The notes under the pieces: generated by a model
Told to the model about the DNA's origin: nothing
What the model saw: only the letters and a program-made list of their open reading frames with translations
Database searches by the model: none
Shown: piece by piece, positions 20,748 to 21,276 of the stretch
How the letters are laid out: every line of letters begins with the position of its first letter
How positions within the stretch are numbered: the stretch's first letter is position 1
From: Schmidtea polychroa
Taxonomy: Eukaryota
Length of the DNA stretch: 64,000 nt
Direction: 5' to 3'
Assembly: GCA_044892525.1 (NCBI GenBank)
Contig: CM097885.1
Coordinates: 8,248,001-8,312,000, forward strand
Made by a program: the position numbers and the translations under genes

Positions 20748-21276
20748 TTAATTTTTATTCATATATCTACAGAAAATATACATTATAACAACTCCAGTTG
20801 TAAGTTTTATATAGTTTTTCATTTTTCTTTTGATTTCATCAGTTTCTTTAAAATTGCAGGCCAGTTTATTTAATACACCCCATCCGCCATTGGCTTCTAT
20901 CCATGGGGTAAACTTGGACTTGATTATCTAGAAATGAATATTATTAAAATATAGATTATAAAAGAAATCTTACTTCTAAAGACCAATGATAATAATGTTC
21001 TGAATCATGTTGACCTTTTGCAATGATTATCTTCATGTAGGTGAATCCTACAATTATCCTTGTCCATTTCATGTCTTCATCGAAAAGACACTGAAATATT
21101 CTATTGAAGTAATACTTCTTGGTTTCCAGGGATTCCATCTCCATCATCTGCTGATAATCGATATGTTCACCTTCAATGATTTGTTCGGTTCGATTGATCA
21201 CGAAATTGAGGCTGTCGACTATATTCGCGGTGACAATTCCGTTTAGAACATTTTCCATAAAATTTGGTTGCGACAT
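20748..21276 (-). CDS. Mav1 Bcl-2 family protein, spliced: join(20974-21276,20748-20927), 160 aa
   Basis: BH1-like LFDEDMKWTRIIVGFTY in exon 1. After a 46-nt GTAAGA..CTAG intron come BH2 PWIEANGGW and a hydrophobic tail LTTGVVIMYIFCRY. Confidence 0.88.

Follow-up and report, generated by a model that had tools for sequence, protein, structure and literature searches.

Viral Bcl-2 homologues (vBcl-2) are carried by several of the larger DNA viruses, for example adenovirus E1B-19K, herpesvirus BHRF1, ASFV A179L and poxvirus F1L/M11L, and several of these proteins also deviate from a perfect NWGR signature. Like the gene described below, they combine a captured host Bcl-2 fold and a tail anchor with a dsDNA virus-like genome; unlike it, they are tested inhibitors from viruses with known virions, whereas the role of the present gene and any virions of its element are putative. 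Bcl2 homologues have also been reported in adintoviruses (Starrett et al. 2021, PMC8502044), in a sentence of section 3.2 and in three labels of Supplementary Fig S2, which stand in rows headed cavefish and Steinernema and in one unassigned row. There too, Bcl2 is an accessory gene in an integrase- and pPolB-bearing animal Maverick, with a function assigned by homology only. The accessible parts of that article (PMC8502044) contained no mention of viral-gene splicing or of a donor gene, and those of its supplement had 0 matches to Schmidtea. A BCL2-like domain is furthermore carried by the Burro giant retrotransposons of planarians (PMC6431247), so that two unrelated planarian mobile elements, Maverick and Burro, each have a Bcl-2.

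Our search of openly accessible papers, with the Starrett supplement covered in part, returned no paper on a planarian Maverick Bcl-2. The Bcl-2 cargo of adintoviruses is already known, as an earlier note on this locus had correctly pointed out (PMC8502044); the present case adds a traceable donor and a likely gain of an intron on the element. Intact vertebrate Mavericks, by comparison, have been reported to be intronless (PMC8097293). The likely donor is a host gene whose RNAi phenotype is known, and the genus is amenable to RNAi; an apoptosis block by a Maverick accessory gene is therefore directly testable in a class of genes otherwise named by homology only.

A Bcl-2 gene inside the right terminal repeat of a Maverick

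The window analysed here is a stretch of 64,000 nucleotides from Schmidtea polychroa (assembly GCA_044892525.1, contig CM097885.1, forward-strand positions 8,248,001 to 8,312,000), and positions are counted from its first letter (Table 1). Its element Mav1 holds pPolB, protease, capsid-like, integrase, ATPase and TBP-like genes. With Pfam matches to pPolB (PF03175), the rve integrase (PF00665), the packaging ATPase (PF04665) and the adenain protease (PF00770), Mav1 is by gene content, and by its ends, inverted repeats and target duplication, a Maverick/adintovirus (Polinton). Two ORFs of 407 aa and 355 aa, both without Pfam match, lie at the places expected for capsid genes, and from gene order they are putatively capsid-like. 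The Mav1 pPolB gene (7563-11646) is split over two frames, and the gene at 19811-20095 is a cut-short counterpart of a Mav2 gene (37721-38140), which makes this Mav1 copy likely to be non-autonomous.

Counted inwards from the right terminal repeat of Mav1, the Bcl-2 gene comes first. Its spliced product has 160 aa, and the unspliced frame meets a stop 5 codons into the intron. The earlier note had called the gene hidden from the ORF track, which applies to exon 2 only, exon 1 being listed as a 106-aa ORF. The full-length spliced protein is absent from the protein database, which holds exon-1 products only (P0004-P0006). By hydropathy only, short hydrophobic tails with values of 1.29-2.17 and basic flanks were found in all 8 spliced copies checked; the host tail reaches 1.53, and the last 30 residues of the Mav1 protein carry a net charge of +5.

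Table 1. Positions of the Bcl-2 genes, their parts and the elements that carry them.
Feature	Position	Strand	Remarks
Mav1	6696..22076	.	15,381 bp; AGT...ACT ends, terminal inverted repeats, 6-bp target duplication GATTAA
Exon 1, Mav1 Bcl-2	20974..21276	-	101 codons; predicted helices 1-6: BH4-like, degenerate BH3, BH1 with KWTR
BH1 tetrad KWTR, residues 70-73	21058..21069	-	RWSR in the host counterpart of bcl2-1
Intron, Mav1 Bcl-2	20928..20973	-	46 nt, GT-AG (GTAAGA...TTTCTAG), phase 0, within helix 6
Exon 2, Mav1 Bcl-2	20748..20927	-	59 codons + stop; end of helix 6, BH2, tail
BH2 WIEANGGW, exon 2	20880-20903	-	
Predicted tail anchor, Mav1 Bcl-2	20760..20810	-	best 17-residue Kyte-Doolittle mean 1.29; basic-flanked
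AATAAA, poly(A)-signal-like word	20754..20759	-	overlaps last codons of the gene; seen in sequence only
CCAAT box upstream of Mav1 Bcl-2	21337-21333 (region 21306..21337)	-	function putative
TATAAATA box upstream of Mav1 Bcl-2	21313-21306	-	function putative
Mav2	34838..40623	.	5.8-kb deleted, mosaic element
Exon 1, second copy (Mav2)	38914..39210	-	99 codons
Intron, second copy (Mav2)	38862..38913	-	52 nt; TA run 6 nt longer
Exon 2, second copy (Mav2)	38682..38861	-	DNA identical to Mav1 exon 2

Upstream of the gene, the CCAAT and TATAAATA boxes were both present in 7 of the 10 copies inspected. The TATA box ahead of the gene overlaps an AATAAA word. At 21276-21432, a related contig of sequencing run X2 has a poly(T) loose end at 21276, that is, at the start codon; this contig may represent a short upstream transcript of another subfamily.

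The second copy in Mav2 was found where the earlier note had placed it (38682-39210). Mav2 is a mosaic with the terminal repeats of another family, a pPolB piece 67% identical to Mav1 and a Mav1-type accessory block at 88%; the first 30 nt of its Bcl-2 gene are 87% identical to a third subfamily, as against 70%. Mav3 (44424-51963) gave no Bcl-2 match with the host-only profile described below.

Splicing and intron position

According to the earlier note, splicing of the 46-nt intron joins a BH1-like motif to BH2 and the tail, and this was borne out by an exact junction in two runs and by conservation of the site. The joint 20927->20974, which skips 46 nt with ends CT..AC, was exact in contigs of 2 of the 6 runs examined, X1 (depth 46, 30-nt side) and X2 (depth 18, 39-nt side); both belong to one study and are guessed to be RNA (no run is recorded as RNA), X1 covers intergenic DNA as well, and the contigs are unassignable to the Mav1 copy. 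Run X2 also has poly(A)-like loose ends near the gene. The junction evidence that the earlier note had asked for across the intron is thus present in these two runs but absent from X3, X4 and X5, whose contigs go through or into the intron; X7 leaves exon 1 uncovered and is hence uninformative on splicing.

An intron survey of 125 locus rows, duplicates included, gave 89 rows that met the acceptor rule, 32 that failed it (host rows, the intronless clade and decayed copies) and 4 that were too short. GT..AG was found at the same codon in 84 of these 89 rows, with introns of 30-60 nt that fall into all three length classes modulo 3. Two near-identical sets account for 59 of the 89, and the survey as a whole is dominated by the two groups of 30 best matches. 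Intron site and phase are kept across subfamilies at 29-100% identity. Splice ends that stay conserved while the length varies are as expected of an intron and not of an insertion.

The earlier note had pointed to the host bcl-2 genes for comparison of intron position. Inheritance of the intron from such a gene is unsupported, because the coding sequence is continuous across this site in the host bcl2-1 counterpart (locus L042) and in 7 other host paralogues. The host intron sits right after GGW, a conserved site of pro-survival genes (PMC8998228, section 2.2); the Maverick intron lies about 16 codons earlier, and the host intron is missing in both Maverick clades, Mav1 exon 2 reading through GGW without a coding intron after it. 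Because the host intron is missing in both clades and the Maverick intron occurs in no host paralogue examined, capture as cDNA followed by intron gain is the simplest reading. We infer that the host gene entered the element by way of a processed mRNA, and the intron was likely gained on the element after capture, in one Maverick clade.

A candidate GT-AG intron was also seen in the Mav1 integrase gene (16811-16882, minus strand; 72 nt, in frame, filled with ATT repeats), and the Mav3 integrase gene has a candidate GT-AG intron at the same site (about 47920-47960, plus strand). The planarian Mavericks of this window may, from these candidates, carry several introns.

Membership of the Bcl-2 family

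Exon 1 matched Pfam PF00452, the check named in the earlier note, with an E value of 9e-4, but its score of 20 bits stays below the cut-off of 31.4. The cut-off was exceeded by the intronless sister protein (32.7 bits) and by the subfamilies with an in-frame intron. With an independent profile whose sole input was 9 Bcl-2 rows from outside the Mavericks, all of this genome, exon 1 scored 20.4 bits, exon 2 8.9 bits and both exons read through with X 30.4 bits; the maximum over 500 shuffles was 8.9 bits. Matches to Bcl-2-family chains in the PDB were weak (E 0.12 for exon 1, 0.93 for exon 2), and a 25-row profile reached 4e-14 against Bcl-xL, a figure helped by the host paralogues among its rows.

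In the structural model of exon 1, six helices follow one another as in Bcl-2, at low confidence (pLDDT 66) and without a significant structural match: in Foldseek, Bcl-2 proteins occupy most ranks at E >= 0.75, and in VIA-align generic helical repeats come out on top, with BOK at a Z of only 5.5. For the model of the intronless sister (pLDDT 72), every Foldseek match listed was Bcl-xL/Bcl-2, the best row having E 7e-3, probability 1.0 and TM 0.50.

The earlier note had read the NWGR signature of BH1 as altered to KWTR, which is correct. The glycine is absent from Mav1, and WGR was found in 0 of the 121 rows counted; in the other Maverick subfamilies that we examined, the tetrad reads TWSR, KWSR or CWSK. 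Mav1 retains Trp and Arg. In helix 2 of the Mav1 protein, which reads LNFVINRT, the BH3 motif L-x-x-x-G/A-D is missing. By profile and motif, the gene is a member of the Bcl-2 family (PF00452) with a BH1-BH2 domain.

The host gene bcl2-1 as likely donor

In a genome-wide Pfam search, matches fell on paralogues of the host, on Maverick copies and within ORFs as long as 3090 aa, the last being consistent with Burro retrotransposons. All 20 Maverick rows scored 59-90 bits against L042 or P0007, and none exceeded 42 bits against a further 8 host paralogues or a domain of Burro. L042 is a single-copy host locus next to a host peptidase-like gene, with one intron of ~3 kb, and is 87-93% identical to ACW83059.1 (C9WPR4), which supplement file 2 of PMC4993586 gives as the best match for bcl2-1 of S. 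mediterranea. RNAi of bcl2-1 leads to total lysis of the worm (PMC4993586), a phenotype of Pellettieri et al. 2010 as relayed by PMC4993586 and PMC3566077. These scores show the bcl2-1 counterpart to be the closest host relative of the Maverick gene at the sequence level. Seven near-identical intronless copies of another host gene, bcl2-2, lie at G000:C4:89.95-90.83 Mb (L031-L037); the two checked match the S. mediterranea protein at 100% identity, as against 87-93% between L042 and bcl2-1.

The Maverick protein shares with bcl2-1 a non-canonical BH1 of the W-S/T-R type, BH2, a tail anchor and a helix 5-6 stretch that is shorter than in 4 other paralogues aligned. It differs in length (160 vs 184 aa) and is only 23% identical over 129 residues; bcl2-1 is moreover a single host gene, as opposed to hundreds of element copies. 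The glycine is already absent from L042, whose BH1 reads RWSR, and its loss therefore predates capture. KWTR is largely inherited and hence no viral novelty, which rules out a virus-specific BH1 change; a specificity altered by the virus, one of two options in the earlier note, is not supported by KWTR. A departure from the canonical BH1 is no obstacle to an essential role in survival.

In the tree, the spliced Maverick clade (97/96), the intronless Maverick clade (99/96) and the bcl2-1 group (93/95) were recovered, and the union of the Maverick genes with bcl2-1 was weakly supported at 79/92 (69/85 and unresolved in earlier trees); Burro, L151 and 7 near-duplicates were left out of the 69/85 tree, and three more out of the 79/92 tree. 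One capture versus two gave a p-AU of 0.44. The intronless clade (L053 and L094-L096, at G000:C1:15.39-15.41 Mb) encodes a 143-aa Bcl-2 with CWSK in BH1 and is closer to the host gene (44-51%). Capture from host bcl2-1 is, on these comparisons, likely. Three further Bcl-2 proteins of 140-161 aa (P0017-P0019), on contigs of up to 13.7 kb, group with bcl2-1 (93/95) and may be carried by related elements of other flatworms.

Burro is likewise a planarian mobile element with Bcl-2-like cargo in many copies (as matches to long ORFs). Its domain differs in lying inside a polyprotein, forms a separate clade (100/99) and scores 22-33 bits against Maverick proteins, from which we conclude that its BCL2 was likely captured independently; an origin of the Maverick gene from Burro is ruled out by the scores given above. 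Since Burro retrotransposons carry the domain (PMC6431247), Bcl-2 cargo suits intracellular elements too, and the gene does not argue for the true viral life cycle with which the earlier note had found it consistent.

Copy number and selection

A search of the 781-Mb host genome with exon 1 gave 2380 candidates, of which 150 were scored; all of these were 96-100% identical, and 6 contained a stop. With a subfamily at about 60% identity, the 150 scored matches were again all 96-100% identical. Exon 1 differs by 0.2% on average among 29 close copies, which indicates a young expansion, and among 30 close copies 7 are defective. Many copies form inward-facing pairs 5-16 kb apart, such as G000:C1:224756100(+)/224770365(-) and C4:74274524(+)/74279207(-), and L006 and L007 have 2.4 kb in common at 99% in inverted orientation; such pairs are likely elements with the accessory arm at both ends.

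Among 8 representative copies, with the exons counted apart, dN/dS was 0.07-0.28 in 25 of 28 pairs, several of them near saturation, and was undefined in one saturated pair. Between subfamilies, both exons stayed below 0.5. The two pairs within subfamilies gave 0.74 (Mav1 vs Mav2, 8 codon changes) and 0.80 (13 changes). Purifying selection between subfamilies is shown by these ratios, and the pattern agrees with selection acting while lineages replicate and drift setting in once a copy has inserted. The earlier note had stressed that the gene is intact in Mav2 although most core genes are lost there; as an argument for selection we reject this: with few changes and the whole 2.1-kb terminal block around Bcl-2 retained, the intactness of Mav2 is uninformative, and the signal comes from the comparisons between subfamilies.

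Likely function and alternative readings

On the most probable reading, this locus is a spliced Bcl-2 accessory gene of a very abundant planarian Maverick, likely derived from bcl2-1 and likely blocking mitochondrial apoptosis in cells with an active element. Early expression would likely come from a promoter of host type (CCAAT/TATA) next to the terminal repeat, on its inner side, and host machinery would splice the transcript. The tail of the 160-aa protein would direct it to the mitochondrial or ER membrane, where a groove with the kept BH1 Trp and Arg would take up the BH3 helix of the host's Bak-like proteins (one such BH3 is encoded at L167:9523-9699), and the host cell would be kept alive during replication, integration or particle assembly of the element. 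Polintons are PIWI-repressed and become de-silenced in normal differentiation in S. mediterranea (PMC8532177), and under such conditions the element would benefit from a survival factor. A membrane-anchored apoptosis block is thus the likely function as predicted from motifs and relatives; of the anti-apoptotic or altered-specificity effector put forward in the earlier note, the first half stands as most likely and the second is not supported. Given only 23% identity to the host gene, binding specificity may nevertheless have drifted, and in mouse Boo a Ser at this BH1 site alters BH3 selectivity (PMC8998228).

The same low identity to the donor would be expected if the fold had been repurposed for innate-immune signalling or autophagy and no longer guarded mitochondria. 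Some poxvirus Bcl-2-like proteins have been repurposed for other host pathways in this way; Thr at the BH1 glycine site could narrow the groove, and the Maverick protein has a shorter loop from helix 1 to helix 2. We consider this unlikely, since the poxvirus signalling inhibitors are not known to have a tail anchor, whereas one is predicted in every spliced copy checked here, and since the donor is itself non-canonical at the BH1 site yet essential for survival. Still less probable is a role as decoy or pro-death factor, by which host bcl2-1 would be neutralised or cell lysis promoted so that particles are released. Weak matches of exon 1 alone to Bak chains in the PDB (E 0.19-1.5) and the divergence of the donor lineage agree with such a role, but the Bak-like host gene has the BH3 motif that helix 2 of the Maverick protein lacks, the nearest relative is a survival gene, and the promoter appears to be of the host type, as for an early gene.

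The ratios of 0.74-0.80 and the defects among close copies would also suit a passive captured fragment, or a frameshifted pseudogene in which the 'intron' is an insertion. This is highly improbable and already largely refuted by the exact junction in two runs, by the GT..AG kept despite varying intron length and by the low ratios between subfamilies in both exons. Beyond the preferred reading of an apoptosis-blocking accessory gene, it is conceivable, if quite unlikely, that a Maverick lineage took an essential survival gene as cDNA and gained an intron, and that its intact copies now form a second Bcl-2 pool which sets the cell-death threshold upon Polinton de-silencing in differentiating stem-cell progeny. 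If true, an element-encoded survival factor would act on host regeneration and tissue turnover.

Other elements and genes in the window

TBP-like genes (PF00352) were found in Mav1 (18583-19047, plus strand; E 9.5e-15) and in Mav3 (45675-46016, minus strand; E 1.4e-12), and a TBP-like gene also adjoins the intronless Bcl-2 clade. The window further contains a fourth pPolB-bearing element (PF03175) at 53651-57845 and, at 59203-63736, a Gypsy-type LTR element with a zinc knuckle, RT, RNase H and integrase.
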